Assembly (NCBI GenBank): GCA_041308845.1
Contig: JBFZAT010000059.1
Span: 3,378-67,377, forward strand
Source: Candidatus Omnitrophota bacterium
GTDB taxonomy: Bacteria; Omnitrophota; Gorgyraeia; Gygaellales; Profunditerraquicolaceae
Reading direction: 5' to 3'
Length of the DNA stretch: 64,000 bases
Shown here piece by piece: positions 2,626-60,073 of this stretch (position 1 is the stretch's first letter; the number at the start of each line of letters is the position of its first letter). Both the position numbers and the translations under genes were made by a program. Below the pieces are notes generated by a model. That model saw nothing but the letters and a program-made list of their open reading frames with translations, searched no databases and was not told the origin of the DNA.

Positions 2626-3336
2626 ATGTTGATGGTTTCATTTATAATTTTTGAAATTATCGTTTTTACCGGTTTGATTTTTATCTTACGTAAAATCATG
2701 ACCCAGAATGTAATTTCGGCGACCCAGCACATCGACGAATTAAACCAGGATTATACTAAGAAAGATGAAGATATCCACCGCCGTTGGGAGGAAGTTAAGC
2801 GGCAAGCTGAGCAAATTATCCGCCAGGCTCAAGAAGAAGCTGAAAAGACCAAATCGGAGTTGATGGCTGCCGGTCAAGCCGAAAAAGATCAGATTTTAAA
2901 ACAGGCCCGCGCTAAAAGCGAAGAGATGGTTGCTCAAGCGGACAAATCTTGTCAAGCGATGCTTGCGGAAATAGAGGCGCGGGTTAGCCGGGAGGCGATG
3001 AATAAAGCAGCAGATTTAATTCATGATGTTTTGCCCGATAAATTTAAGCAGAGCGTGCATAATGAATGGGTAGAAGGGTTGATTGCCCATGGGTTTAGCC
3101 ATTTGAATAATATCAGTATTCCGGATAATGTCTTCGAAGTTTTGATTGTTTCCGCATTTCCACTTACTGCTGCCCAGCGCCAGGAGTTGACGCAAAAGCT
3201 TTCCCGGGTTTTAGAGAGAACAATTACCTTAAAAGAAGAAGTAGAACCTAAGCTTGTTGCCGGACTAATTATTAAGATTGCCAGCCTGGTTTTTGATGGA
3301 ACTTTAAAAAATAAAATTATGGAGAAGGCCCGCTAA
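2626..3336 (+). CDS. atpF: ATP synthase b subunit fused to the delta (OSCP) C-terminal domain
   Basis: It has an N-terminal TM helix and a charged coiled coil typical of b. The C-terminus, LTAAQRQELTQKLSRVLERTITLKEEVEPKLVAGLIIKIASLVFDGTLKNKIMEKAR, matches the delta C-terminus (...[34 protein letters not shown]). Confidence 0.65.
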   Translation: MLMVSFIIFEIIVFTGLIFILRKIMTQNVISATQHIDELNQDYTKKDEDIHRRWEEVKRQAEQIIRQAQEEAEKTKSELMAAGQAEKDQILKQARAKSEEMVAQADKSCQAMLAEIEARVSREAMNKAADLIHDVLPDKFKQSVHNEWVEGLIAHGFSHLNNISIPDNVFEVLIVSAFPLTAAQRQELTQKLSRVLERTITLKEEVEPKLVAGLIIKIASLVFDGTLKNKIMEKAR

Positions 3337-4820
3337 TGTCCAGCGAGATAAAATTCCCGGATCCCGGAACAGTTTTTGAGATTCGCGAGGTAGGTTTTGT
3401 GCAGAGCGTGCGTAAATTCATTGTCGTGGCTAAAGGCATGCCCAGCTGTATTAATGGCCAGATTGTTGAGTTTGCTAACGGTATTCCGGGTTTAGTGATG
3501 GGGTTTACCGAGGAAAAAGTCCAGATTTTAGTTTTAGGGGACCCGGTGGGCATTCGTGCCGGAGATGAAGTTTATAACAAGGGGAAATCTCTTAGTCTTC
3601 CGGTAGGGGAGGCTTTCGTCGGCAGGCTTGTAGATGCGCTTTGCCGTCCCCTGGATGGTTTAGGCCCAATCCAAGCCACTACCCAATTACCAGCATTTAT
3701 TGTTGCTCCCGGAGTTATGGATCGGCAGCCGGTAAATCAAACTCTGGAATCTGGTACTCTGATTATCGATGCGATTATTCCTCTGGCCAAAGGCCAGAGG
3801 CAGCTTTTAATCGGCGACCGAATTACCGGTAAAACCTCGGTAGCCTTGGATGCGATTATTAACCAGAAAGGTAAAGATGTAGTTTGTATTTATTGTTGCA
3901 TCGGTAAGCCATACTCAAGTTTAGTAAAAGTGATCAATGTTTTACGCGAAAAAGAAGCTTTGGATTACGTGATTATTGTCTCTGGCGTAGCCAGTGTTTC
4001 TACCGGAGAACAGTATTTAGCCCCCTATACTGCCTGTACTTTAGGGGAATATTTTATGAGCCAGGGTAAGGATGTATTATTGGTGGCGGATGATTTAACC
4101 AAACATGCCTGGGTGTATCGGCAAATATCTCTTTTACTAGAGCGGGCACCCGGGCGAGAAGCCTACCCGGGAGACATTTTTTATTTACACTCTCAAATGA
4201 TGGAGCGGGCCGGACTGCTTAAAAAAGAGTTAGGCGGAGGCTCAATGACCTTTTTACCGATCGTCGAAATTCTGCAGGGAGACCTTACCGGTTATATTCC
4301 GACCAACTTGATTTCGATGACCGACGGGCAGCTGTATTTCTCTACGGGGCTTTTTAATAAAGGGGTTAAGCCGGCGATTGATTTTGGTTTATCGGTCTCC
4401 CGTATTGGTAATAAAGCGCAGTGGCCGGCGATGAAGGCCTCCAGTAAATCTTTGCGGCTGGACTACCTACAGTATAAGGAACTACTGCAGATGACCCAAC
4501 TGCGCACCGCCGGACTTTCTAAAGAGGCCGAAGAGCGCCTGCGCCGGGGGGAGGCGATCAGCCAATTGATTACTCAGGATAAAAACCGTCCGGTTTCTAT
4601 CGAAGAGCAGATTATTTATTTATATTCCTTAAACCAGGGTTGGTTAGATAATTTATCGACGCAGCAGATTCGGCAATTCCGGTTGGGCATTCTGAATTAT
4701 TTCCAACAGAAAAAGCCTGCATTCTGCCAACAGATCCGCCAGAGCAAAATGCTTAGCGAAGATTTACGTTTGATGTTAGAGGAAACATTAACCGCATACT
4801 TACAGCAAGAGGTAAAGTAG
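3336..4820 (+). CDS. atpA: F-type ATPase alpha subunit
   Basis: It carries the alpha P-loop GDRITGKTS with QRQLLIGD, and the overall alpha architecture. Confidence 0.85.
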   Translation: MSSEIKFPDPGTVFEIREVGFVQSVRKFIVVAKGMPSCINGQIVEFANGIPGLVMGFTEEKVQILVLGDPVGIRAGDEVYNKGKSLSLPVGEAFVGRLVDALCRPLDGLGPIQATTQLPAFIVAPGVMDRQPVNQTLESGTLIIDAIIPLAKGQRQLLIGDRITGKTSVALDAIINQKGKDVVCIYCCIGKPYSSLVKVINVLREKEALDYVIIVSGVASVSTGEQYLAPYTACTLGEYFMSQGKDVLLVADDLTKHAWVYRQISLLLERAPGREAYPGDIFYLHSQMMERAGLLKKELGGGSMTFLPIVEILQGDLTGYIPTNLISMTDGQLYFSTGLFNKGVKPAIDFGLSVSRIGNKAQWPAMKASSKSLRLDYLQYKELLQMTQLRTAGLSKEAEERLRRGEAISQLITQDKNRPVSIEEQIIYLYSLNQGWLDNLSTQQIRQFRLGILNYFQQKKPAFCQQIRQSKMLSEDLRLMLEETLTAYLQQEVK

Positions 4821-4824
4821 ATTT

Positions 4825-5688
4825 ATGCAGACGATGGCGGTAATTAAAAAAGATATGGATTTTAACCGCGGCCTTTCTTCATTGATCGAAGTATTAAAAA
4901 ATATCGCTGTGTCACAATATCGTTCGCTAGAGCATAAATTCACTGTTTTTGATAAACTGATGAACGCCATTGAAAGCTGTTTTGAATTTATTGACCTTTC
5001 AGCTTTCCGGCACCAGTTTTTAACGCCGGCTAATCCGGCGCAATTAATTGTGGTGATTACCAGCGATAGCGGACTTTTGGGCGGTTTAAATATGCAGGTA
5101 GTTACCCGGGCCCTGGCCGGATTAGGGAATACTTCTGGTGGTCAATTGGTAGTCATTGGCGAAAGAGGAAAGATGTATGCCCGGGAAAGCCAGGTACCCT
5201 TTGTGGCCTATCCCGGAATTAGCGACGATAACCGCCTTACCCAGGCTTTGCAACTAAGAGATTATTTATTCTCCGGAATCCTGCAGAAGAAGTTCGGTGC
5301 TTTAAAAGTGGTTTATCCTCATCCGGTGTCTTTTACAGTGCAACGGGTGGAGACGGTGAATTTTCTCCCTTTTTCTATGGATTTCTTATCGAACCAACCT
5401 CAGGCCGCCGGTCAGGCCCGAATTATCAAAGAGGTTATTTTCGAATCTAAGATGGCAGATATTTTTGAATATTTGATTTATCTCTGGATGGGGCAGAAGC
5501 TTTATGACATTTTCGGCTTGAGCCGTTTATCAGAATTTGCCGCCCGCTATGTTCATCTCGAGGATAGTTTGCGCCGGCTTAAAGAGATGGATAGTAAACT
5601 AAAATTACAGTATTTTCGCATCCGGCATGAAATCATTGATCAAAGCATGCGTGAACTTTTTAGCGCCCGGTTATTGTATAATTCTTAA
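4825..5688 (+). CDS. atpG: F-type ATPase gamma subunit (divergent)
   Basis: LIVVITSDSGLLGGLNMQV matches gamma YLVVSTDRGLCGGLNINL, and the C-terminal helix aligns to the gamma C-terminus. Confidence 0.65.
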   Translation: MQTMAVIKKDMDFNRGLSSLIEVLKNIAVSQYRSLEHKFTVFDKLMNAIESCFEFIDLSAFRHQFLTPANPAQLIVVITSDSGLLGGLNMQVVTRALAGLGNTSGGQLVVIGERGKMYARESQVPFVAYPGISDDNRLTQALQLRDYLFSGILQKKFGALKVVYPHPVSFTVQRVETVNFLPFSMDFLSNQPQAAGQARIIKEVIFESKMADIFEYLIYLWMGQKLYDIFGLSRLSEFAARYVHLEDSLRRLKEMDSKLKLQYFRIRHEIIDQSMRELFSARLLYNS

Positions 5689-5719
5689 CAGTTAGAGGAG
5701 TTTATCAGGGGAATATTTT

Positions 5720-7120
5720 ATGGTTAAGGAAAAAATAAAAGGAAAAATTACTGCCGTGCAGGGGCCGGTGGTGGATGTAAAATTTGCCAGCTCTGATGAG
5801 GTACCGAATATTTATGCGATGCTCTTGACGCATACCATTGATGGTAGTGAGGTTTTTTTAGAGGTTGCTGAGCACCTGCCGGGGAACCTAGCTCGTTGTA
5901 TCTCAATTAACTCTACTACTAATATCCAACGCTATGCGCAGGCAGTTTTCTACGGCCCGTCTATCCAGATACCGGTGGGAGATGGCCTTTATGGACGTTT
6001 AATTAATGTGGTTGGTCAGGCGATTGACCAGGGCGGGGCGATCCCTTACCAGGAAAAAAATTCGATCAGGAAAACCGATATGGGCAGCCGGATGACAATT
6101 AGTAAGAATAAAGATGAGCGGCGTAGTTTTGAGGTAATGGAAACCGGTATTAAGATTATCGATTTACTGGCTCCTTTAGTTAAAGGCAGTAAAACCGGTA
6201 TTTTAGGGGGCGCCGGATTAGGCAAGAGCGTGTTAACCTTGGAAATTATCCAGCATATCGTTAAACGCTATCAGGGTAGTTGCGTTTTTGTCGGTATCGG
6301 GGAGCGTATTCGTGAAGGAAATGAGCTATATTATGAATTAAAGAATCATGATGTGTTATCTAAAACAATGATGGTTTTTGGCCAGATGAATGAGCCTCCC
6401 GGAGCGCGTTTTGCCGTGGCGATGACCGGCATTACCATGGCCGAGGCGGTGCAGAAGAAGAATCAGGATGTGTTGATGTTTTGCGATAATATCTTTCGTT
6501 TTGTGCAAGCCGGAAGTGAAATTTCTACACTCTTAGGCCGGGTGCCTTCAGAAACCGGTTATCAGCCTACCTTACTTTCGGAGGTGAGTGAGTTTCATGA
6601 GCGTATTCGCACAACTAAAGATTCGGGAGGTTCCATTACTTCTATTGAGGCGGTCTATGTGCCGGCTGATGATTTAACTGATCCAGCGGTTGTGGCGATT
6701 TTTAGTTTTCTAGATTCAGTTCTGGTTTTATCCCGCGAGCGTATCCAATTAGGTTTATATCCGGCGATTGATCCGCTTTTATCCAGTTCTTCTAATTTGG
6801 ATATCGATATCGTCGGTAAACGTCATTTCGATGTTGCCCAGGATGTCATCAGAATGTTTCAACGCTATGAAGAGTTACGCCGGATTGTTTTAGTTGTGGG
6901 TATCGATGAACTTTCTTCAAGCGACCGGATTATTTATGAGCGGGCCAGAAAAATGCAGAATTTCCTCACTCAACCGTTTTTTGTCGGAGAAGCTTATACC
7001 GGTAAAAAGGGGGTTTATGTAACCATTGAACAAACTTTGGATGGATGTGAAAGAATTATTTCTGGTAGAATGGATAATCAGCCGGAGGAAGGTTTTTATT
7101 TAATCGGAGCTTTATCATAA
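5720..7120 (+). CDS. atpD: F-type ATPase beta subunit
   Basis: It has the P-loop GGAGLGKSV, the catalytic GERIREG, MNEPPGAR, FRFVQAGSEISTLLGRVPSETGYQPTL and YVPADDLTDPA motifs. The DELSEED loop reads DELSSSD. Confidence 0.85.
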   Translation: MVKEKIKGKITAVQGPVVDVKFASSDEVPNIYAMLLTHTIDGSEVFLEVAEHLPGNLARCISINSTTNIQRYAQAVFYGPSIQIPVGDGLYGRLINVVGQAIDQGGAIPYQEKNSIRKTDMGSRMTISKNKDERRSFEVMETGIKIIDLLAPLVKGSKTGILGGAGLGKSVLTLEIIQHIVKRYQGSCVFVGIGERIREGNELYYELKNHDVLSKTMMVFGQMNEPPGARFAVAMTGITMAEAVQKKNQDVLMFCDNIFRFVQAGSEISTLLGRVPSETGYQPTLLSEVSEFHERIRTTKDSGGSITSIEAVYVPADDLTDPAVVAIFSFLDSVLVLSRERIQLGLYPAIDPLLSSSSNLDIDIVGKRHFDVAQDVIRMFQRYEELRRIVLVVGIDELSSSDRIIYERARKMQNFLTQPFFVGEAYTGKKGVYVTIEQTLDGCERIISGRMDNQPEEGFYLIGALS

Positions 7121-7147
7121 TAAAATATATTAAAAAGCGAGTAAAAG

Positions 7148-9298
7148 ATGTCTAAAAAAATCGATTTGCAGTTAGCCGAAGTATTGGTGGAAAAGAAATT
7201 GATTAACCGGGAGGATATCGGAAAATTTTTACAGGAAGCCGCAACGCTCAGCCATGATTTAAAACAGGTTTTAATCAAGCACAATTTGTTTTCTGAAAAA
7301 GAACTGCTGGATATCTTGGCCGAGAAGCTAAAATTAAGCTGCGTTAACCTTAAGGAGCTGCTGATTGATAAATCGATTATTACTAAAGTTCCTTTGAAGA
7401 TCGCTTCTTATTATAAATTTATTCCTTTGGCGCTGCGCGGCCGGACACTGACGATTGCCGTGGCTTATCCTTTAGACATTCAGACCTTGGATGAAATTAG
7501 GACTCAGCTGGGTCTGGACCTGGAGATGTCTTTGGCCTGCTCGGCGGATGTTTTAGATGATTTAAAGAAATATTACGGTTTGGCCGCCGATACCCTGGAA
7601 AAAATAAGCTCCCAGAGTCCTGCGGGGAACTTTAGCGAACAGACTAAAGTGCAAGAAGGAGTGGAAGATATTGAAAAACAGGCCACGGATGCTTCAGTGA
7701 TTAAATTAGTTAACCAGATAATTCTAGAGGGTTGGCGGAAACGGGCTACCGATATCCATATTGAGCCTTATCGCCAAGGCTTATCTTTACGCTACCGGAT
7801 TGACGGTTTACTTTACGATGCTAATGTGCCAGGGGAAATAAAAAATTTTCTTAATGCCATTGTTTCCCGGATTAAAATCATGTCGAACCTGAATATCGTT
7901 GAACGCCGCCTGCCCCAGGACGGCCGGGCGATTGTTAGGGTCCAAGATCAGGTCTTAGACCTGCGTATTTCCACTATTCCTACTCCTTTTGGAGAAAGCT
8001 TGGTGATCAGAATTCTGCCTACCCAGATGCTCTTTAGCCTGGAGAAACTGGGTTTAGCCAAGAGTGAATTGCAGATCTTTGAAAAATTAGTTCAGAAGCC
8101 GCACGGTATAATATTCGTTACCGGCCCCACTGGCAGCGGTAAGACGACCACCCTTTATTCTTGCCTGACCAGGATTAACACCAAAGACCGTAAAATTATT
8201 ACCATCGAAGACCCGATCGAATATGAGATGAGCGGGATTACGCAGATCCAGGTAATGCCGGAGATCGGGCTGGATTTTGCCCGCGGCCTGCGCAGCATTT
8301 TAAGGCATGATCCGGATGTAATTATGGTGGGAGAAGTAAGGGATTTTGAAACTGCTGAAACAGCCATCCGGGTGGCTTTAACCGGGCATTTAGTATTTTC
8401 TTCTTTACATACTAACGATGCCGCCAGCGGAATCGCCCGCCTGCAGGATATCGGAGTAGAACCTTACTTGATTGCTTCTAGCGTGGAGGCTTTTATTGCT
8501 CAACGTTTGATCCGGGTGATTTGTCCGGAATGCCGTTTTGAAGATAAAAATGCGCCTTTAGAATTAAGGGAGTTGATTGCTAAAGATTTGGGAATTAAAT
8601 TAGAAGAGGTAAAAATATTCCGGGGTAAAGGTTGTGCCCATTGTAACGCTACCGGGTTTTTTGGCCGTACGGCTATCTACGAAATCCTAATCGTCGATGA
8701 TCTAACTAAGGAGATGATTTTAAAGAAAGCTTCTTCGGATCAAATTAAAAGGCTGGCTTTATCCAAAGGCATGCGGACTTTGCGCCAGGACGGTTGGAAA
8801 AAAACGATCAGCGGGATTACTACTTTTGAAGAAGTAATCCGGGTAACTTCGGCTCAACAGGAGGATCTTTTGGTCAAAGAGACTCCGGCTCAAGAGCGCG
8901 GATATACTAAATCGGAGCTGCCGCCGCAGCCGGAAGGATCAAATAAACGTATTTATCAACGTTTAGATAATAAAGTTAAAGTGCGCTATAAAGTTTTTGA
9001 AACCGAAAAAGAATTGATTAAGCGTAAAGAAATCACTGAGGAAATCAGCGCGACAAAAAATATTTCTGCCGGAGGTTTACTTTTTATTGCTCAGGAGCAG
9101 TTAACTATAGGTGCAATATTAGAGCTTAAGATTCAATTACCTAGCAGCCAGGAGTTGGTTGAATGCTTAGCCAGGGTGACTAGGGTGGAGGAAATGCTTG
9201 AGCCGGGAGAATATGATATTGCAGTTTGTTTCCTGGATTTAACCAGCGCTGATAGGATTAGATTAGATAAATTCGTGAAGCTAGAAAGCGGAGGTTAA
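7148..9298 (+). CDS. gspE: Type II secretion / type IV pilus assembly ATPase (GspE/PilB family) with an N-terminal T2SSE_N/MshEN-like domain and a C-terminal PilZ domain
   Basis: Walker A is GPTGSGKTTT. The tetracysteine motif is CPEC...CAHC. The C-terminal ~140 aa carry RIYQR (RxxxR) and NISAGGLLF ((D/N)xSxGG), which are PilZ c-di-GMP-binding signatures. Confidence 0.8.
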   Translation: MSKKIDLQLAEVLVEKKLINREDIGKFLQEAATLSHDLKQVLIKHNLFSEKELLDILAEKLKLSCVNLKELLIDKSIITKVPLKIASYYKFIPLALRGRTLTIAVAYPLDIQTLDEIRTQLGLDLEMSLACSADVLDDLKKYYGLAADTLEKISSQSPAGNFSEQTKVQEGVEDIEKQATDASVIKLVNQIILEGWRKRATDIHIEPYRQGLSLRYRIDGLLYDANVPGEIKNFLNAIVSRIKIMSNLNIVERRLPQDGRAIVRVQDQVLDLRISTIPTPFGESLVIRILPTQMLFSLEKLGLAKSELQIFEKLVQKPHGIIFVTGPTGSGKTTTLYSCLTRINTKDRKIITIEDPIEYEMSGITQIQVMPEIGLDFARGLRSILRHDPDVIMVGEVRDFETAETAIRVALTGHLVFSSLHTNDAASGIARLQDIGVEPYLIASSVEAFIAQRLIRVICPECRFEDKNAPLELRELIAKDLGIKLEEVKIFRGKGCAHCNATGFFGRTAIYEILIVDDLTKEMILKKASSDQIKRLALSKGMRTLRQDGWKKTISGITTFEEVIRVTSAQQEDLLVKETPAQERGYTKSELPPQPEGSNKRIYQRLDNKVKVRYKVFETEKELIKRKEITEEISATKNISAGGLLFIAQEQLTIGAILELKIQLPSSQELVECLARVTRVEEMLEPGEYDIAVCFLDLTSADRIRLDKFVKLESGG

Positions 9299-9303
9299 AG
9301 TTA

Positions 9304-10521
9304 ATGGTAAAGTATAATTATCGGGCCAAGAAAGGGCTCCAGGAGATAGTCAGCGGTACGATAGAAGCTGCTTCGGAAAAAGAGGCCATTGAAAAAATCA
9401 GTGCTTTAGGGTATCTGCCCGTGCACCTGGAAGAGAATAAGGGTCCTGCTCAGGCCTCGATTTTAACCACGCCTAAATCTTACGGCAGGATAGGTTCCGG
9501 TCAGATTACTATTTTTAGCCGGCAGTTGGCCAGCCTTTTAAAATCCGGGGTTCCGATATTATCCGCGATAAATATTATTAAAGAACAATCGGAAAACATG
9601 AATTTAAAAGCGGTGCTGGTTGATATCTATAATGAGATTAAGAATGGAGGTACTTTTTCGTCTTCCCTGGAGGCTCACCCCAAATATTTTTCTGTTTTGT
9701 ACGTAGCGATGGTGCGCACCGGGGAGAATAGCGGAGCTTTAGCTGGTTCGCTTTTAAGGATTGCGGATTACCGGGCTAAACAAGAAGAATTGCTTTCGCG
9801 TTTGCGCATGGCGATGGCTTATCCGCTACTTATGGCTTTAGTCGGAGTGGCTACGGTGGTATTTATGCTTACTTTTGTGATGCCTAGGTTAATGGGGATA
9901 TTTTCTAGTCTGGGCCAGAATCTCCCGCTGCCGACTAAGATTTTATTGGCTATCAGCCAAGGTCTGCGCCAGTGGTGGCCGGGAATAATCTTAAGTCTGG
10001 GGGTAGTGGTTTTTTTGATCAAACAGCAGTTAAAAACTAAAATTGGTAAAATTTCCTGGAGCATTCTAAAATTGCATATACCGATTTTTGGGAAATTCGT
10101 GTTAAAAGCGGATCTGGCTTGTTTTAGCCGGACTTTAGAGCTGTTAATTAAAAGCGGCCTGCCGATACTTAGGGCGCTGCAGATATCCGTTCAGGTATTA
10201 AGCAATGAAGTGATCAAGGAAAAGTTAATTAAAAGCCATCGTGATCTGGAACAGGGGGGATCTTTTGGCCAGAGCATGAAAGATTCTAAATTGCTGCCTT
10301 TGTTTATGGTGAACTTAATCAGCGTCGGCGAAGAATCCGGTAACCTGGCTGCGGCCTTAGGAGAAGTAGCGGATTGCTATGAACGTGATACCGATGAAAC
10401 CGTCAGGATAATGAGCAGCTTACTTGAACCACTAATGATCTTGGTTATGGGTTTAATCGTGGGTTTTATTGTGGTAGCCATGTTATTGCCGATATTTGAA
10501 ATTAACATGATGGCTAAATAA
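9304..10521 (+). CDS. gspF: T2SS/T4P inner-membrane platform protein (GspF/PilC family)
   Basis: It has the duplicated T2SSF-like architecture, 405 aa, three TM segments, and sits immediately downstream of the ATPase. Confidence 0.75.
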   Translation: MVKYNYRAKKGLQEIVSGTIEAASEKEAIEKISALGYLPVHLEENKGPAQASILTTPKSYGRIGSGQITIFSRQLASLLKSGVPILSAINIIKEQSENMNLKAVLVDIYNEIKNGGTFSSSLEAHPKYFSVLYVAMVRTGENSGALAGSLLRIADYRAKQEELLSRLRMAMAYPLLMALVGVATVVFMLTFVMPRLMGIFSSLGQNLPLPTKILLAISQGLRQWWPGIILSLGVVVFLIKQQLKTKIGKISWSILKLHIPIFGKFVLKADLACFSRTLELLIKSGLPILRALQISVQVLSNEVIKEKLIKSHRDLEQGGSFGQSMKDSKLLPLFMVNLISVGEESGNLAAALGEVADCYERDTDETVRIMSSLLEPLMILVMGLIVGFIVVAMLLPIFEINMMAK

Positions 10522-10526
10522 ATCCT

Positions 10527-11387
10527 ATGACGAATATAAGAATGAAGCTATTTTTAGTTATTTTATTGGGTCTATGTTCTTTGGCCGCCGGTTACCCCGG
10601 GAACTGGTCAGAGAAAAAAAGCGAGCATTTTATCGTCTATTTCACCCAGGATGAAAAGTTCGCCCAGGATGTATTGCATAGAGCAGAGCAGGATTACCGC
10701 CGTATCGCTCACGATTTAGGGTATGCGCGGTATTCGGAATTTTGGACCTGGGATAAAAGAGTGAAAATTTACATCTATCCAGAGCGGAATGCTTTCTTAA
10801 AAGCGACCAACCAACCTTCTTGGTCAGAAGGGATGGCTGATTATACCAATAAGCATATCGTCAGCTATGCCTGGGGCAAAGGGTTTGTAGAGTCGCTTCT
10901 ACCGCATGAGATTGCGCATTTAGTTTTCCGCGATTTTGTAGGCTTTAAGGGAGAGATTCCTCTTTGGCTGGATGAAGGTGTAGCGCAGTGGGCCGAAGAA
11001 GCTAAACGTAAGGAGATTAAGAGCCTGATACAGCGATATTTTCAGCAGGATAATTTACTTTTAGTGAGCGATATCATGAAACTGAATATTGAGAATCTTA
11101 AAGGTAAACAGGGGTTATTGATCCGGGCCACCCGGACCAAAGACGATAAAGACGGAGTACTTTTCTTAAGCGCTAACAATTTAATCGAAATTTATTATCT
11201 TCAATCTGTTTCGCTGGTGGGTTATTTAATTGAGAAATTCGGCTCTACCGCTTTTTCCGGGTTTTGCCGTGAACTACGCGATGGGCGCAGCGTAGAGGAA
11301 GCTTTGAGGGTTGCCTATCCTTTACGCATCCGTGATATTAAAGAGTTCGAGGATGGCTGGAGGGAATATTTAAAGACAGGTAATTGA
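10527..11387 (+). CDS. Secreted putative zinc metallopeptidase, MA clan (Peptidase_MA_2-like)
   Basis: It has a signal peptide, HEIAH (HExxH) and a downstream WLDEGVAQW (third-ligand Glu in the WxxEGxAxY/W context). It is embedded between gspF and gspG. Confidence 0.45.
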   Translation: MTNIRMKLFLVILLGLCSLAAGYPGNWSEKKSEHFIVYFTQDEKFAQDVLHRAEQDYRRIAHDLGYARYSEFWTWDKRVKIYIYPERNAFLKATNQPSWSEGMADYTNKHIVSYAWGKGFVESLLPHEIAHLVFRDFVGFKGEIPLWLDEGVAQWAEEAKRKEIKSLIQRYFQQDNLLLVSDIMKLNIENLKGKQGLLIRATRTKDDKDGVLFLSANNLIEIYYLQSVSLVGYLIEKFGSTAFSGFCRELRDGRSVEEALRVAYPLRIRDIKEFEDGWREYLKTGN

Positions 11388-11402: not shown

Positions 11403-11834
11403 ATGATCATGAATAAAGCGCAAAAAGGTAGAGTTCAATCAAATGGTTTTACGCTGATCGAATTAATGTTGGTAGTGGTAATTATCGGGGCATTGGTAGC
11501 GATGGTCATGCCTAGGCTTACCGGTAGAGGAGAACAGGCCCGGGTGGCAGCAGCTAGCGCGGATATTAATGCTAATATTGCTACTGCTTTAAAACTTTAC
11601 GAATTGGATAATGGCAATTTTCCCAGTTCCTCTGAAGGGTTAAAGGCTTTATTAGTTAAACCTTCATCAGTGAAGAATTGGAATGGGCCTTATTTAGAAA
11701 GAAAACCGGTTGATCCTTGGGGCCGGGAATATGAATATAAATCTCCGGGTGAGCATCGCAAAGCCGATTATGATTTATACTCTTTAGGTAAGGATGGGGT
11801 AGAGAGTGTTGATGATGTTACAAACTGGGAATAA
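11403..11834 (+). CDS. gspG: T2SS major pseudopilin GspG
   Basis: It has the prepilin leader SNG|FTLIELMLVVVIIG and the GspG C-terminal signature NWNGPY...DPWGREYEYKSPG...DYDLYSLGKDG. Confidence 0.85.
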   Translation: MIMNKAQKGRVQSNGFTLIELMLVVVIIGALVAMVMPRLTGRGEQARVAAASADINANIATALKLYELDNGNFPSSSEGLKALLVKPSSVKNWNGPYLERKPVDPWGREYEYKSPGEHRKADYDLYSLGKDGVESVDDVTNWE

Positions 11835-12228
11835 GGCAAGCATAAAGAGTCCTGTTAGAGGCTTTAGTCTGCTGGAGGTGATGATTGCCGCAGCGGTGCT
11901 GGCTTTGGGGGCGACATTAATTTATCAGTCTTTTTTTACCGCGGTTGATTCTTTTAATTATTATTCCGCTCTTTTAAAAATAACCCCTTGGATGGATGAG
12001 CAGATTTGGCAAGCCCAGAATGAGCTTAGCCGTCCGGGTTCAGGAGCTAATCTGCCCTCCGGCGGTCGGCTGGAAATTAATAATAAGGTTGTGGATTGGA
12101 GTTTAACTTACCATGCTCTAGATCAATCTATGAACCTTTACCAGATTGACTTGGCTCTTTTCTGGCCGCAAGGGGCCAGGCAAGTCAAATTATCGAGATC
12201 CGCTTATGCGATTCATACGCAAGAATAA
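11806..12228 (+). CDS. Minor pseudopilin (GspH/GspI-like)
   Basis: It has the prepilin-type N-terminus RG|FSLLEVMIAAAVLALG and is of small size. Confidence 0.55.
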   Translation: MLMMLQTGNKASIKSPVRGFSLLEVMIAAAVLALGATLIYQSFFTAVDSFNYYSALLKITPWMDEQIWQAQNELSRPGSGANLPSGGRLEINNKVVDWSLTYHALDQSMNLYQIDLALFWPQGARQVKLSRSAYAIHTQE

Positions 12229-12790
12229 TTCAGGTTTTAGTCTGGTTGAGCTTCTGGTAGTCATGGTTATGCTCAGCGTAATTTCTTTAGCTATCTATTC
12301 AACCTTTAATAATGGTTTTAAAATATGGCAAAAGGTTAATCAGCCTTTAGAGCAGCAAGATTTGGGTATTTTCTTTGATAAGTTGGCTCAAGATTTAAGC
12401 AACTGCTTGCATTCTGCCAATATCCCTTTTTCCGGTAGCCTGAATACCCTGACTATACCGACCTTAGTTTTTAGCCCGCGCTTAAAGATAAAAAGTTTAG
12501 GTTCGGTAGATTATTTTTACGATCCGCAAGCCGGATTTGTGTATCGTCAAACTAAGGATTTCAGCCAGCTTTATAACCGGCAACAAGAGAGTCCGGTGCT
12601 CCTATTAAAGGAGATTAGATTTTTTAGATTTGAATATTATTACTTTGACGCAGAGAAACAAACTTATTTGTGGCAAGAAGAATGGTTAAGCACGGGTTTA
12701 CCTCTGGCGGTTAGGGTAGTGCTAGGTTTTAATGATTCCGATGAGAATAACCAATTTATCCGGACAATCAGTGTTCCGATCGGCGCTTAA
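12206..12790 (+). CDS. Minor pseudopilin (GspJ-like)
   Basis: It has the prepilin-type N-terminus NSG|FSLVELLVVMVMLS, reached from the internal ATG at 12206. The listed ORF start at 12146 is probably too far upstream. Confidence 0.55.
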   Translation: MRFIRKNNSGFSLVELLVVMVMLSVISLAIYSTFNNGFKIWQKVNQPLEQQDLGIFFDKLAQDLSNCLHSANIPFSGSLNTLTIPTLVFSPRLKIKSLGSVDYFYDPQAGFVYRQTKDFSQLYNRQQESPVLLLKEIRFFRFEYYYFDAEKQTYLWQEEWLSTGLPLAVRVVLGFNDSDENNQFIRTISVPIGA

Positions 12791-13784
12791 GTCCAAAGGA
12801 AGTATTTTAATTCTGGCTTTATGGTCGCTTTGTTTATTATCGGCGTTTGCCGTTATTTTAAATTATCAAATTCGCCAAGCGCTGGTTTTAGCCAGCCGGA
12901 TTGATCAGAAAGATAAAATGCGCTGGATTGCCGCTGCCGGGGTAGCTAAGGTTATGGCGGAATTAAAGCATAGCCCAGCGCAGACCTACGATTATTTAGC
13001 TGACCCCTGGAGTAATAATCCTGCCGCTTTCCGGGATATTCCGGTAGGAGACGGCGAATTTACCCTAGAATATTTTTATCCAGATACCTACTCTGCTGTT
13101 GCCCAAGCAGGTTACGGTTGTGTGGATGAAGAACGTAAGCTTAATATTAATCAGGTTGAGCCGGAAGTTTTAACCCGTTTTTTCCGGGTAGTTTTATCGG
13201 TTGATGAATCGCTGGCTCAAGAATTAGCCGCTTGCATTGTGGATTGGAGGGATGCAGATAGCCAGCTTTCTATTCCTACCGGGAGTGCGGAATATTTTTA
13301 TTATAGCAGCCTGCCTTTTTCTTATCCGGCTAAAAATGCCGATTTTGAGGTTCTAGAGGAGTTGTTGCTGGTTAAAGGTTTTAGCGAGAATGTTTTTGAA
13401 AAAATAAAAGACTATGTTACTATTTATGGATCCGGCCGGGTGAATATTAATACCACTACGCAGGTTATCTTATTTGCCCTGGGGTTAGATGAAGATTTGG
13501 CGGCCAAGATTATTTTATACCGCATGGGTCCGGACGGATTGGGCCAGACACCGGATGATAACGTTTTTGTTTCTCAATCGGAGATTGTGCCCAAGTTAAG
13601 TCAATTTTATGCTTTCAGTTCTGCACAGATTGATCAGTTGAATCGGATAGTTTCTCAGTATATCGCGGTTGGCTCCAATAACTTTTTGATTAAGTCTACG
13701 GCTAAATTGTCCGGAAAGAATACTTTAACTGTATTTAGTGTAGTTAATCGAGATGGCAAAGTTCTTTACTGGCGGGAAAATTGA
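12732..13784 (+). CDS. gspK: T2SS minor pseudopilin GspK-like
   Basis: It has a hydrophobic N-terminal segment, 350 aa, a GRVNINTTT (xNxNTA-like) motif and a helix-hairpin-helix-like region typical of GspK. Confidence 0.55.
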   Translation: MIPMRITNLSGQSVFRSALKSKGSILILALWSLCLLSAFAVILNYQIRQALVLASRIDQKDKMRWIAAAGVAKVMAELKHSPAQTYDYLADPWSNNPAAFRDIPVGDGEFTLEYFYPDTYSAVAQAGYGCVDEERKLNINQVEPEVLTRFFRVVLSVDESLAQELAACIVDWRDADSQLSIPTGSAEYFYYSSLPFSYPAKNADFEVLEELLLVKGFSENVFEKIKDYVTIYGSGRVNINTTTQVILFALGLDEDLAAKIILYRMGPDGLGQTPDDNVFVSQSEIVPKLSQFYAFSSAQIDQLNRIVSQYIAVGSNNFLIKSTAKLSGKNTLTVFSVVNRDGKVLYWREN

Positions 13785-13787
13785 TAA

Positions 13788-15269
13788 ATGTTTAAAATTA
13801 AAATGAAAAAGTTTAAATTTTTTTCCAGGCTTGCCCACCAGGAAATGGTCGGGGTTAATCTCAGCGGGAATAATTTAAAAATCTCTCATCTAAAGATTTC
13901 TCCGAACAAGAAAGAGGTAGTTAATCTTTTGAATTTAGATATTACCGCGCTTAACGATATTGAGATCGCTAAAAAAATCCAGGTAGCTATCGGGGCTCTC
14001 CGGGGTAAAGCGGTGGAGATTATTGATTTGCTTCCTACGCATTTGGTAATTACCAAAAATATCGAAGTTCCTTCTATCGAAAAAAAAGAGATTAAGGAGA
14101 TTCTCAACCTGCAGGCCGGCCGGCATACTCCTTATTCCCGAGAAGAAATAATCGTAGATTATGTTGAAATCGGTACCTATAAAAATAGCTATACTAAGGT
14201 ACTTTTAGTGATTGTGGCTCGCAGCGTTGTTAAGCGGCATTATGAAATATTGGAACGGGCAGGTTTTAGGCTTAAGCAGGCTCTTCTGGCTTCGGAAGGA
14301 ATGGCTTTGGCTGTTTTTAAAACTTTAAGGCTGGAGAATGAAAGCGCGCCGGTCAACATTCTGCATGTTGATGAAAACTTTACGGATTTTAGCGTCGTTT
14401 TTAAAAACCGGGTTATTTTTATCCGTTCTATCCCGATCGGGGCCTCTCAGCTCAAACAAGAAAAAGAAGTTTACCAGCTGAAGTTTATCGACGAGCTTAA
14501 AAGATCGTTGGAGGCTTATTTAGGCGGAGATATTGAAATCAGCCCGAATATGCTTATTTTAACCGGAGCCGAGGACGGCCTGAAAGAAATTGAAACTTTG
14601 CTTAACAGCACAATGCATTTACCGATTAAAACCTTGTCGTATTCCGGTATGTTTAATATTTCAGAGCTAGCCCGCGGAGCAATGTTTAAATCCCGGCAAA
14701 TATCTTTTTTTGATGTAATTGCTCCGCTTTTAAACTGTCCGGAGCTCAAGATTGATCTGGTGCCGGAGGAAGCCCGGGTGCGCCGCTCACTTGAGGAAAG
14801 AGGCAAAGATTTGATTAAAACCGGTATTTTTATCTTAAGTATTTTTATTATTGTTTTCTTTATTCTAGCCAGTAAAATCTATTTCCATGGTGTTCAGCTA
14901 AACAGGTTAGAACGTAAATATTCTACGGTTAACCGGGAAGCCAAAGAGCTAGAGAAAGACCTGGTTAAAATAGGGTTGGTGAAGAATTATCTGACTAATC
15001 GGGGCTATTCTTTAGAAATTTTGACTCAGTTACACGGTTTAGTTTCTGCTGATATTGAGTTGAGCGAAATTCGCTATGACCTAGATAAATTCTCCATTAA
15101 AGGTTCGGCGGATGCCATGAGTTCGGTTTTTTCATTTGTCGACCGGCTGGAAAAGTCCGAATATTTCAAGGAGGTTAAAACCCGCTATACCACTAAGCGC
15201 AAAGACGGTTTGAGGGATTTAACGGATTTCGAAATTATTACTTTGACCGAAAGGCCTAAGGATCGATGA
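13788..15269 (+). CDS. GspL-like protein: a PilM-type actin-like cytoplasmic domain, a TM helix, and a PilN-like periplasmic domain
   Basis: The N-terminal ~350 aa resemble PilM. A single TM helix follows (IFILSIFIIVFFILA), then a ~120-aa periplasmic segment. Confidence 0.6.
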   Translation: MFKIKMKKFKFFSRLAHQEMVGVNLSGNNLKISHLKISPNKKEVVNLLNLDITALNDIEIAKKIQVAIGALRGKAVEIIDLLPTHLVITKNIEVPSIEKKEIKEILNLQAGRHTPYSREEIIVDYVEIGTYKNSYTKVLLVIVARSVVKRHYEILERAGFRLKQALLASEGMALAVFKTLRLENESAPVNILHVDENFTDFSVVFKNRVIFIRSIPIGASQLKQEKEVYQLKFIDELKRSLEAYLGGDIEISPNMLILTGAEDGLKEIETLLNSTMHLPIKTLSYSGMFNISELARGAMFKSRQISFFDVIAPLLNCPELKIDLVPEEARVRRSLEERGKDLIKTGIFILSIFIIVFFILASKIYFHGVQLNRLERKYSTVNREAKELEKDLVKIGLVKNYLTNRGYSLEILTQLHGLVSADIELSEIRYDLDKFSIKGSADAMSSVFSFVDRLEKSEYFKEVKTRYTTKRKDGLRDLTDFEIITLTERPKDR

Positions 15270-15832
15270 AGCTGCCTAATTTACAGTTTTTACAGGTATT
15301 TGTAGGGAAGTTATCTAAAAAAGACCGTTTGATTTTTTACCTTACGGTTTTTATGGTTTCATTATTGATTTTAGACCGGGCAATTGTTTCTCCCGTTTTT
15401 TCTAAAATCAAATCCTTAAATAATCAGGTCCGCGATAAGCAGGCCGAGATTAAAAAAAATTTACGGCTGCTAGCGCAGAAAGACAGAATTATTACCGGAA
15501 GTGTTAAATACAGCTCTTTTTTAGGTGATGCCCGGCTGAGCGATGACCAGCAGGTCACTTTAGTACTGAAAGAATTGGAAAGTCTAGCTAGCAAGAGTTC
15601 GGTATATTTAGTAGATATGAAACCGGCGGGGGTCAAAACATCGGGTTCTTCAAAAATAATCATGATCAATCTGAATTGTGAAGCCCAAATGGAGCAGTTG
15701 GTGAATTTTATGTATAATCTAGAGAATTCCAATAGTTTGATTTCGATAGAGAAATATCAACTGGTTCCTAAAACCAGAGAATCCAGCGTAGCTAAATGCA
15801 GCATATCTGTGTATAAGATCGTAGCGCTATAA
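15266..15832 (+). CDS. GspM/PilO-like bitopic membrane protein
   Basis: It has an N-proximal TM helix, is 188 aa, and its position after the GspL-like gene matches canonical T2SS order. Confidence 0.45.
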   Translation: MKLPNLQFLQVFVGKLSKKDRLIFYLTVFMVSLLILDRAIVSPVFSKIKSLNNQVRDKQAEIKKNLRLLAQKDRIITGSVKYSSFLGDARLSDDQQVTLVLKELESLASKSSVYLVDMKPAGVKTSGSSKIIMINLNCEAQMEQLVNFMYNLENSNSLISIEKYQLVPKTRESSVAKCSISVYKIVAL

Positions 15833-16400: not shown

Positions 16401-16434
16401 CAGCTCTATTTTATTTAAATAGGGCTGTTTTTTT
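16401..16434 (+). terminator. Rho-independent terminator after the T2SS-like cluster
   Basis: An inverted repeat, cagctctattt...aaatagggctg, is followed by TTTTTTT. Confidence 0.6.
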
Positions 16435-16445
16435 ACCTTTATCTG

Positions 16446-58735: not shown

Positions 58736-60073
58736 ATGGAAATTTATTTAGCCTCAAAATCTAAAGCTAGAAAGAAACTCTTAGAGAAATTCGGCCTGAA
58801 ATTCAAAGTCTTACCGGCTAAAGTTAAAGAGCAATCCCGGCGGGGTAATTTATCATATGCTAAGCTTGTCCAGTATAATGCCCGTCAGAAAGCCGAAGCA
58901 GTAGCTGCCCGGCTGCCGGCGGGAATCATTATCGCTGCTGACACTATCTGCGTTCAGGACGGCAAGATCTTCGGCAAACCGAAAAATTTAGTCAATGCTG
59001 CCGGGATGCTTAAGCGATTATCCAGTAAACCGCAATGGCTTTATACCGGCTTGGCAGTGATTAAAAAAACCAGTACTCAGCAGAAACTGATCCTGGATTA
59101 TGAAAAAACTAAAGTTTATATGGATAAATTAAGCCCCCAGCAGATTAGCCGGTATTTTAAACAGGTTTCTCCTCTGGATAAAGCCGGCAGTTTTGATATC
59201 CAGGGTAAGGGGGCATTCTTTATTAAAAAGATCGAAGGTTGTTTCTATAATGTGGTCGGCCTACCTTTAAGAAAACTTTATCGGATTTTTCAGCGCCTGG
59301 GACTCTGGTTAATCCTCTGTACGTTTTTTGGCCTGGCTGGTTGCGCTACGGAATATAATCTGGCCACTAAACAAGAGGAAAAGTATTACTACAGTACGGA
59401 TAAAGAGGTACAGATGGGCCGGTCGATTAACCGCAGAATAGAAAAAGAATTAAAATTTTCCGATGATCTTTTGCAGCAAAAACGCCTGGAGGATATCGGC
59501 AAGAAAATCGCCGCAGTCAGCGACCGCCAGGAAATTGATTACCATTTCCGTGTTTTAGATGATCCAGAAGTTAACGCTGTCTCTTTGCCCGGAGGCTATG
59601 TTTACGTTAATAGCGGATTATTAGATAAGCTAGCTAATGATGATGAGCTGGCCTGTGTTTTAGCCCATGAAATAGGGCATATTGTTGCTCGGCACAGCAT
59701 TAAAAAACTTCAGGCTCTGCAAAGCTACTCTGTTTTAAGGGTGCTGGTGGCGGTGGCACCCGGGTCCGCAGAAGTAGGCAATGCCGCGGACGCTGCTTTT
59801 ACTCAATTTTTATTAGGTTATAGCCGTCAAGATGAGTTGTTAGCCGACCAGCTGGGAGCCCGTTATGCTAAACTGGCAGGTTATAATCCGCAGGGCATGA
59901 TTACTTTTCTGATGAAATTACAGGAGTCTAACCGCCGGATGCCGATTCGGGGGCGGTCCTATTATAAAACTCATCCTTATGTTGCTGATCGGATCAGAGT
60001 AGTTAAGCAGGAATTAAATCAACCGCTTAATTTCGGGGATTATATTAATATCGAACAGCAAACCTATGAATAA
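58736..60073 (+). CDS. maf: Maf nucleotide pyrophosphatase domain fused in-frame to a lipobox/TM segment and an M48-type zinc metallopeptidase domain
   Basis: Residues 1-190 form a Maf fold (IYLASKSKARKKLL...AADTI...GLPL). Next comes LWLILCTFFGLAGC (a lipobox-like LAGC), then HEIGHIVARH (HExxH) with a downstream Glu, typical of M48. Confidence 0.55.
   Translation: MEIYLASKSKARKKLLEKFGLKFKVLPAKVKEQSRRGNLSYAKLVQYNARQKAEAVAARLPAGIIIAADTICVQDGKIFGKPKNLVNAAGMLKRLSSKPQWLYTGLAVIKKTSTQQKLILDYEKTKVYMDKLSPQQISRYFKQVSPLDKAGSFDIQGKGAFFIKKIEGCFYNVVGLPLRKLYRIFQRLGLWLILCTFFGLAGCATEYNLATKQEEKYYYSTDKEVQMGRSINRRIEKELKFSDDLLQQKRLEDIGKKIAAVSDRQEIDYHFRVLDDPEVNAVSLPGGYVYVNSGLLDKLANDDELACVLAHEIGHIVARHSIKKLQALQSYSVLRVLVAVAPGSAEVGNAADAAFTQFLLGYSRQDELLADQLGARYAKLAGYNPQGMITFLMKLQESNRRMPIRGRSYYKTHPYVADRIRVVKQELNQPLNFGDYINIEQQTYE

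Follow-up and report, generated by a model that had tools for sequence, protein, structure and literature searches.

To our knowledge, direct control of secretion and pilus motors by cyclic di-GMP (c-di-GMP) has so far been found to work either through an N-terminal MshEN domain of the motor itself or through separate adaptors (PilZ-FimX). Here we describe a gene from a Candidatus Omnitrophota bacterium, gspE::PilZ, whose product joins an ATPase of the GspE/PilB class to a PilZ domain at the C-terminus. The gene lies on contig JBFZAT010000059.1, in a stretch of 64,000 nucleotides (positions 3,378 to 67,377 of the forward strand) that we call the window. The reading we favor, with a probability of roughly 0.7, is that the protein is the motor ATPase of a pseudopilus machine resembling the T2SS (type II secretion system) and that, as judged from sequence comparison, it would be gated by c-di-GMP through the PilZ domain, held on a flexible tether.

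Among described systems, the MshE-type ATPases (V. cholerae MshE, P. aeruginosa PA14_29490/HxrA and T. thermophilus PilF) are alike in that the motor carries its own c-di-GMP receptor (PMC4624772; PMC5013675), and both their N-domain fold and their ATPase core are homologous to those of the gspE::PilZ protein. Their receptor is the N-terminal MshEN domain with its two RLGxxLLxxGLLxxxxLxxxLxxQ repeats, whereas in the gspE::PilZ protein the repeats are degenerate and the predicted receptor is the C-terminal PilZ domain. PilZ is unrelated to MshEN in fold, binds the ligand in another mode and generally has about 10-fold lower affinity for c-di-GMP (PMC5013675). The PilB-PilZ-FimX system of Xanthomonas also couples a PilZ-fold module to a PilB-class motor, with c-di-GMP ultimately modulating the ATPase activity (PMC8389850). 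There, a separate PilZ protein without the binding motifs docks on the N-domain of PilB and it is FimX that reads c-di-GMP, whereas here PilZ is fused C-terminally and both motifs are kept.

Two other groups of PilZ proteins resemble the present one in architecture or in mode of action. In BcsA and Alg44, which are close structural matches, a canonical PilZ domain is fused to the protein that it regulates, and the RxxxR motif lies on the linker entering the barrel, so that binding of the ligand can shift the domain against the catalytic part. What is regulated there, however, is a membrane glycosyltransferase or co-polymerase and not a hexameric secretion ATPase. In YcgR and MotI (DgrA), a c-di-GMP-loaded PilZ brakes or clutches a molecular motor; these proteins work in trans, on the stator or rotor of the flagellum, and possess a PilZN domain in addition, whereas here a single PilZ is predicted to act in cis on a pseudopilus ATPase. 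Finally, the canonical GspE of the T2SS (EpsE, XpsE) shares with the gspE::PilZ protein the ATPase family, the tetracysteine motif, the fold of the N-domain and the partners GspF, G, J, K, L and M. Canonical GspE ends directly after the ATPase domain, whereas the gspE::PilZ protein extends further and misses the cut-off of the GspE equivalog model.

The fused PilZ domain and its motor

The initial annotation of the window had taken the gene for a GspE/PilB ATPase with an extra C-terminal PilZ domain and an N-terminal MshEN-like (T2SSE_N) domain. Searches with the hidden Markov models (HMMs) of Pfam bear this out, three domains of the 716-residue protein scoring above their curated gathering scores: MshEN (PF05157; residues 62-146, 52.6 bits against a gathering score of 23.1), T2SSE (PF00437; residues 178-565, E 1.6e-128, 428.9 bits) and PilZ (PF07238; residues 622-710, E 8.6e-11, 42.5 bits against 22.5). 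The motifs that had been named in support, the Walker A sequence GPTGSGKT, the CPEC...CAHC zinc motif, RIYQR and NISAGG, are likewise all present (Table 1). A protein in NCBI (P0001), from a 68.4-kb contig, is identical to the window protein over the full length. Past the ATPase core there are 149 residues, of which about 33 form a linker and about 116 the PilZ domain.

The HMM match, the invariance of the motifs and the predicted fold all support the assignment of the C-terminal extension to the canonical PilZ domains. In an alignment of 118 full-length relatives (65-100% identity), R601 and G643 are found in all 118, R605 and N/D638 in 117 each and S640 in 116. Further out, 23 divergent C-termini with 25-66% identity to the query show no exception at R601, R605, S640 or G643. 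Neither of the two outcomes that the initial annotation had set as refuting it, a missing PilZ HMM match or loss of the RxxxR/DxSxxG spacing on alignment, was seen: the match is there, and both motifs hold in the relatives. The Pfam alignment begins only at profile position 22 in the window protein, and from position 2-3 in relatives, which score 37-50 bits. The late start is explained by a family-specific insert between β1 and β2, and the same insert, which includes a short helix, accounts for the spacing of 32 residues between RxxxR and (D/N)xSxxG.

The domain and its tether evolve differently. Mean pairwise identity across the family is 0.82 in the ATPase, 0.59 in PilZ, 0.58 in the N-domain and 0.21 in the linker, the length of which ranges from 24 to 47 residues in the close family and reaches 87 in divergent members. 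The low identity of the linker against that of PilZ, together with its variable length, indicates that constraint acts on the PilZ domain but not on the tether. An AlphaFold2 model was built from the alignment of divergent C-termini and spans residues 565-716. It predicts a β-barrel and a C-terminal helix, at block-mean predicted local distance difference test scores (pLDDT) of 84-93, with strands at positions 47-131 and the helix at positions 136-149 of the cut segment, whereas the first 36 residues are disordered (pLDDT <50). In the model RxxxR falls at the boundary of the disordered tether and the barrel, and (D/N)xSxxG at the turn between β2 and β3.

Comparison of the predicted fold with the PDB by Foldseek gave MotI (5vx6) as the top match and, with it at the head of the list, PA PilZ (4xrn), Alg44 (4rt0), BcsA (4p00), MrkH (5kgo), YcgR (5y6f) and MapZ (5xly), all at a probability of 1.00. 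The best matches are mostly c-di-GMP-bound PilZ structures (5vx6, 4xrn, 4rt0, 4p00, 5kgo and 5y6f), and the tetrameric PilZ of the Xanthomonas type ranks far lower. A sequence search of the PDB with the PilZ part alone gave no match; these relatives were found by fold search only.

A PilZ domain need not bind c-di-GMP. The one here could instead serve as an adaptor between proteins, independent of any ligand, in the manner of the non-binding PilZ of Xanthomonas, and merely tether the motor to a partner. A PilZ protein that does not itself bind c-di-GMP is described as docking on PilB at the MshEN-like N-domain (PMC8389850; 10.1101/814665), and a long tether would permit such docking. We consider an adaptor unlikely, since loss of both the RxxxR loop and the binding motifs is described for non-binding PilZ proteins (10.1101/814665), whereas both motifs are invariant here, in close as well as divergent sequences, while the linker is unconstrained. 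The structural comparison points the same way, its closest matches being ligand-binding domains and not the Xanthomonas type. Because a canonical PilZ is fused to an intact ATPase that heads a T2SS-like operon, sensing of c-di-GMP by the motor itself, through predicted binding at PilZ, is the best reading of the sequence.

As to the motor, computation on the sequence shows the ATPase core to be complete and, by its motifs, catalytically intact. Across 40 relatives there is no variation in the Walker A, the Asp box (E354-E358), the Walker B (D388...D399), the His box (T412...N423) or the four cysteines of the zinc motif. Among solved structures, the closest relatives are PilB from Geobacter (5zfr/5tsg) and Myxococcus and PilF from Thermus, with GspE from Vibrio (4pht) coming next, and no solved chain reaches beyond residue 572 of the query.

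The N-terminal domain calls for a different conclusion. The initial annotation had suggested that c-di-GMP might also be sensed there, in which case the motor would bind the ligand both at its C-terminal PilZ and at its N-terminal MshEN-like domain. The domain can indeed be aligned from end to end with the N-domains of PilB (5tsg), MshE (5htl) and XpsE (2d28), it retains the hydrophobic skeleton of both 24-residue MshEN repeats, and its Pfam match exceeds the gathering score. However, where the Geobacter PilB reference repeats read RLGELLV...Q and RLGSILI...Q in the alignment, the key R/G/G/Q positions are replaced in both repeats (Table 1). Arg9 is described as essential for c-di-GMP binding in MshE (PMC4624772); its equivalent is Gln8 in the window protein and I, Q, V or L across the family, never R. 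A relaxed form of the motif requires two 24-residue copies of [RKPN]hGxxhhxx[GAS]hhxxxxhxxxhxx[QNKRYWST] (Wang et al., 2016, PMC5013675). It is passed by 0 of the 118 family relatives, 1 of 60 GTDB proteins and 0 of 6 divergent members. The NCBIfam c-di-GMP_motif model NF053729 gives the window N-domain 27.5 bits, below the cut-off of 38, as against 64-65 bits for stand-alone MshEN proteins of sister operons, described below. Since not one of the 118 relatives passes the motif, the Arg9 position is replaced and the NF053729 score is below cut-off, sensing at the N-domain is unsupported, and we hold binding at both ends to be very unlikely. The N-domain thus keeps the MshEN fold and has lost the c-di-GMP motif. 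It probably retains just a structural or GspL-docking role.

Distribution of the fusion and accessory receptors in related operons

The best 120 matches to the protein in a collection of 5.8 billion proteins all have the three-domain architecture. Comparison of the C-terminal 142 residues with 1.84 billion cluster representatives gave 750 matches at E ≤ 0.001, and among the best 150 of these, 38 have T2SSE sequence together with PilZ, as full-length proteins or as fragments at contig edges. A scan of GTDB, with one genome per species and patterns from 6 closer C-terminal sequences, yielded 74 loci, nearly all labeled Omnitrophota. The patterns are family-specific, with independent GspE-PilZ fusions that use another PilZ subfamily lying outside their reach, and the taxon names of relatives are submitter labels throughout. 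In 67 of the 74 species loci, the ATPase core and PilZ are encoded in one uninterrupted ORF (open reading frame). The neighborhood is conserved in 68 loci (L001-L068), with the order atpG-atpD-gspE::PilZ-gspF where the contig allows, and the same operon is found in a divergent lineage (P0178).

These counts settle whether the fusion could be an artefact, that is, a mis-assembly, frameshift or gene-calling error that joined gspE to a separate pilZ. Stand-alone PilZ genes of the same subfamily do adjoin gspE in some genomes, but the fusion recurs as a single, uninterrupted ORF in the window and in 67 independent GTDB species loci that come from many studies and assemblers, and the best database matches are three-domain without exception. 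An artefact is thereby refuted, and we give it a negligible chance.

The survey also qualifies the description of the architecture as uncommon in the initial annotation. No description of a T2SSE-PilZ fusion was found in the searchable literature, from which subscription-only papers and the InterPro architecture tables are excluded, and the passages searched in reviews of PilZ, MshEN and PilB regulation and in papers on Omnitrophota make no mention of it. To that extent the description stands. In Omnitrophota, on the other hand, the fusion is the standard form of the gene, as the counts above attest, and it is also found in metagenome-assembled genomes labeled Planctomycetota. The fusion is visible in precomputed Pfam annotations of public collections.

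The Planctomycetota members form a second clade, labeled Planctomycetota/Brocadiia (P0282-P0287, P0290-P0294; L077, L078). Their proteins are of 720-770 amino acids (aa) and all keep RxxxR. The genetic context differs, the gene being an orphan or part of an E-F pair, without atp genes. In some members GISASG or AISASG replaces (D/N)xSxxG and there is no precomputed Pfam PilZ match; these sequences match the family's own profile at E 1e-21 to 1e-41 and may represent a PilZ on the way to losing ligand binding. One protein of this clade (P0306, 582 aa) is without the C-terminal extension.

Two further arrangements were seen among the relatives. On one Omnitrophota contig (L070, 4199-10399) there is a second, more distant E-F pair, at 42% and 30% identity, in which no PilZ is fused. 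Two stand-alone PilZ genes lie a few kb downstream of this pair, and a stand-alone MshEN-like ORF lies upstream of it (1681-2130). In P0264 (939 aa), one of the nearest relatives of the PilZ subfamily, an Hsp70/MreB-like ATPase domain comes after three PilZ domains.

Many of the related operons have an additional candidate receptor gene next to gspE::PilZ, of one of two kinds. In most relatives the gap between atpD and gspE measures 470-600 bp, as against 27 nt in the window, and it encodes a stand-alone MshEN-fold protein of about 155 aa with a near-canonical c-di-GMP motif, for example KIGEILIEHGLITAEQLKYALEEQ then FLGSILLKKGQLDEKDLLEALSRQ. The alternative that the gap, of about 480 bp, holds the epsilon subunit of ATP synthase is ruled out by this finding. 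In addition to the NF053729 scores given above, the stand-alone proteins score 45-51 bits on Pfam MshEN. The gene is present in 39 of the 74 loci (L008, at 7819-8283, and 38 others, e.g., L013, L014, L031, L036 and L067), in 35 of them immediately upstream of gspE; there is none anywhere in the 64-kb window.

The second kind is a mini-protein that we call GspF_N-PilZ. In 7 loci, one or two small genes between gspE::PilZ and gspF (Table 1) encode such proteins, in which one or two PilZ domains with intact motifs follow a GspF N-terminal segment of about 50 residues. The relation to GspF was tested with our own profile built from GspF N-termini, which the roughly 50 residues before PilZ match at E 4.5e-12 to 4.6e-07 (among 5,272 ORFs). 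Eight more representatives were found among the nearest relatives of the PilZ domain, and the window locus has none.

Both kinds of accessory gene could be scored in 55 loci: the MshEN gene is present in 35 and GspF_N-PilZ in 6, neither is present in 14 (the type of the window), and no locus has both. The mutual exclusion may simply follow phylogeny. The placing of accessory receptors at the same spot in related operons suggests that control by c-di-GMP is under selection and that it acts near the interface of GspE and GspF (the E-F interface).

A protein of 206 aa, P0180, presents yet another combination. Its first 58 residues or so are similar to the helical segment at the N-terminus of GspE (33% identity over 51 aa, E 2e-06) and are fused directly to a PilZ of the same subfamily.

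The operon and its surroundings

By computation on the sequence, gspE::PilZ is shown to head an operon of the order E-F-G-(H/I)-J-K-L-M (Table 1). It is this context that identifies the protein as GspE, since gspF, pseudopilins, GspL and GspM are encoded alongside, in the same order as in related loci. The Peptidase_MA_2 gene (zinc metallopeptidase) between gspF and gspG is an unusual member of a T2SS operon; its position is conserved in most related loci.

The T2SS-like operon is preceded directly by ATP synthase genes, and this synteny is conserved across the Omnitrophota loci L001-L068. No epsilon-subunit gene follows atpD in the window, where the spacer between atpD and gspE (7121-7147) has no terminator-like site. 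Because the spacer is so short and terminator-free, and because the strongest terminator-like hairpin of the strand comes after the last gene of the cluster, we infer that the T2SS-like operon is co-transcribed with the atp genes.

Of the remaining window ORFs that were scanned, most are housekeeping genes, among them tRNA synthetases, ClpB-like, RadA-like and isoprenoid genes. Just upstream of the atp genes (125-2155) is a 676-aa ORF without any Pfam or NCBIfam match, and at 58736-60073 a 445-aa ORF joins a Maf-like nucleotide pyrophosphatase domain to a Peptidase_M48 domain.

Table 1. Coordinates of the gspE::PilZ gene, its domains and motifs, the surrounding operon, and the GspF_N-PilZ genes of related loci (window positions, except where a locus is named).
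Feature	Position	Strand	Evidence or remark
gspE::PilZ gene, 716 aa: MshEN-fold N-domain, T2SSE ATPase, linker, PilZ	7148-9298	+	single ORF; Pfam; identical protein P0001
N-terminal MshEN-fold domain, residues 1-146, degenerate c-di-GMP motif	7148-7585	+	Pfam, NCBIfam, alignment
Degenerate MshEN motif I, residues 8-31, QLAEVLVEKKLINREDIGKFLQEA; R/G/G/Q positions are Q/A/K/A	7169-7240	+	
Degenerate MshEN motif II, residues 37-60, DLKQVLIKHNLFSEKELLDILAEK; R/G/G/Q positions are D/K/N/K	7256-7327	+	
T2SSE (GspE/PilB-class) ATPase, N2 and C-terminal domain, residues 178-565	7679-8842	+	Pfam
Walker A GPTGSGKTTT, residues 326-335	8123-8152	+	motif search
Tetracysteine zinc motif CPEC...CAHC (C459, C462, C496, C499)	8522-8644	+	motif search; all Cys invariant
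Disordered variable linker, residues 568-599	8849-8944	+	AlphaFold2 pLDDT <50; identity 0.21
PilZ domain, residues 600-711, predicted β-barrel and C-terminal helix	8945-9280	+	Pfam 42.5 bits; AlphaFold2; Foldseek
RxxxR motif RIYQR, residues 601-605	8948-8962	+	motif search, alignments
(D/N)xSxxG motif NISAGG, residues 638-643	9059-9076	+	motif search, alignments, AlphaFold2
ATP synthase genes (delta-like, alpha, gamma, beta)	2626-7120	+	directly upstream of gspE
gspF platform protein, 5 bp after gspE::PilZ	9304-10521	+	Pfam T2SSF 199 bits; conserved neighbor
Peptidase_MA_2 family gene	10527-11387	+	Pfam; conserved in most related loci
gspG major pseudopilin	11403-11834	+	Pfam T2SSG 110 bits and N_methyl
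Two minor pseudopilins, the second GspJ-like	11806-12790	+	N_methyl, weak T2SSJ match
gspK-like minor pseudopilin	12732-13784	+	Pfam T2SSK_1st 52.6 bits
GspL-like protein, PilM-like and PilN-like domains	13788-15269	+	Pfam PilM_2, PilN; NCBIfam pilM subfamily
gspM	15266-15832	+	Pfam T2SSM_b; NCBIfam GspM_XpsM
Last ORF of the cluster, 157 aa	15881-16354	+	no family match (Pfam, NCBIfam)
Terminator-like hairpin, 11-bp stem and T-run, after the cluster	16401-16437	+	strongest such hairpin on the strand (16401-16427)
GspF_N-PilZ gene, L054	7633-8136		
GspF_N-PilZ gene, L055	2302-2808		
GspF_N-PilZ genes, L058	10463-11371 and 11350-11871		
GspF_N-PilZ gene, L059	10513-11016		
GspF_N-PilZ gene, L062	6463-7011		
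GspF_N-PilZ gene, L063	10478-10981		
GspF_N-PilZ gene, L065	4623-5141		

Proposed control of the machine and its meaning

In PilZ proteins the RxxxR motif is described as lying on an inter-domain linker, and binding of the ligand as re-orienting the domains, as in BcsA and YcgR-type proteins (10.1101/814665). By analogy with these proteins, we propose that c-di-GMP would bind the site formed by RxxxR and (D/N)xSxxG, where the tether meets the barrel. Binding would order the tether and reposition the PilZ barrel against the hexamer or against its partners, which may be the N-domain of GspF, GspL or the motor's own N-domain. The repositioning would in turn switch ATP turnover or platform engagement, so that pseudopilus assembly and secretion would track the cellular level of c-di-GMP. 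The analogy with MshE makes us lean toward activation rather than braking as the effect of c-di-GMP. As to where the barrel would act, a PilZ-fold protein docks on the N-domain of PilB (PMC8389850), and the mini-proteins described above have an N-terminal segment of GspF fused to PilZ; together, these make the N-domain or the E-F interface a likely target.

Several results weigh against a T2SS-like motor gated in this way. The approximately 30 window ORFs scanned include no secretin, GspC or prepilin peptidase. Nor did a crude motif scan of the 64-kb window and of about 1 Mb of flanks from related loci turn up a candidate diguanylate cyclase or phosphodiesterase; the scan used regular expressions for GG[D/E]EF, EAL and HD-GYP and the family PilZ profile, and it covered flanks only and not whole genomes. 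GGDEF domains and small pilZ genes have been reported in Omnitrophota (10.1101/2023.11.21.568195). The full-length AlphaFold2 model, made with 40 relatives, has a mean pLDDT of 53 and a predicted template modeling score (pTM) of 0.28, with the ATPase core mostly below a pLDDT of 50; it is too poor for a docking site of PilZ to be read from it. Finally, the protein stays below the cut-offs of both relevant NCBIfam equivalog models, with 586.2 bits against 630.25 for GspE (TIGR02533) and 556.3 bits against 675.65 for PilB (TIGR02538). Since neither cut-off is reached, we place the protein at the level of the GspE/PilB class, and the name GspE comes from the operon context only.

The equivalog scores and the lack of a secretin among the scanned ORFs also fit a machine that builds a surface fiber resembling the type IV pilus (T4P), for attachment to prey or host. 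PilZ would then gate extension of the fiber, which is compatible with sensing through PilZ. The closest solved relatives of the ATPase are in fact PilB extension motors (464 bits, as against 382 bits for GspE), the L-like protein matches PilM/PilN and the Akkermansia PilM-like pilus protein family, and parts of the literature propose Omnitrophota to be predators or epibionts with T2SS/T4P-like loci. Yet the parts encoded in the operon are of the T2SS type, namely GspG, GspK, GspM and a fused protein of the L type, and the cluster has no PilT-like retraction ATPase. A pilus-like fiber is thus possible, and we count it as a serious alternative without favoring it over the T2SS-like pseudopilus.

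Going beyond the single locus, one may speculate that interchangeable receptor modules around the GspE-GspF interface connect the pseudopilus motor to c-di-GMP in Omnitrophota and in some of the Planctomycetota. The fused PilZ would be the universal module, to which either a stand-alone MshEN with an intact motif or a GspF_N-PilZ "decoy" would be added, while the motor's own MshEN would have been retired from ligand binding. Since the operon and the ATP synthase genes are apparently transcribed together, c-di-GMP would then serve as the post-translational master switch of the phylum's main secretion/attachment machine, and hence of the proposed predatory or epibiotic contact. We offer this wider view tentatively, as somewhat doubtful.

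In sum, the gspE::PilZ family would represent a third solution to the control of such motors by c-di-GMP, with a canonical PilZ on the C-terminus of the motor and the motor's own MshEN motif decayed. It may be regarded as a natural experiment in receptor replacement, and it offers a simple, single-polypeptide system for studying how binding at PilZ reaches a hexameric ATPase. The accessory genes, for stand-alone MshEN and for GspF_N-PilZ, suggest where on the machine the signal acts. The phylum Omnitrophota, which is still little understood, comprises ultra-small and possibly predatory bacteria, and a link has been drawn between its T2SS-like loci and contact with prey. That the fusion is the standard form of the gene in this phylum points to c-di-GMP as a regulator of this possibly predatory lifestyle.

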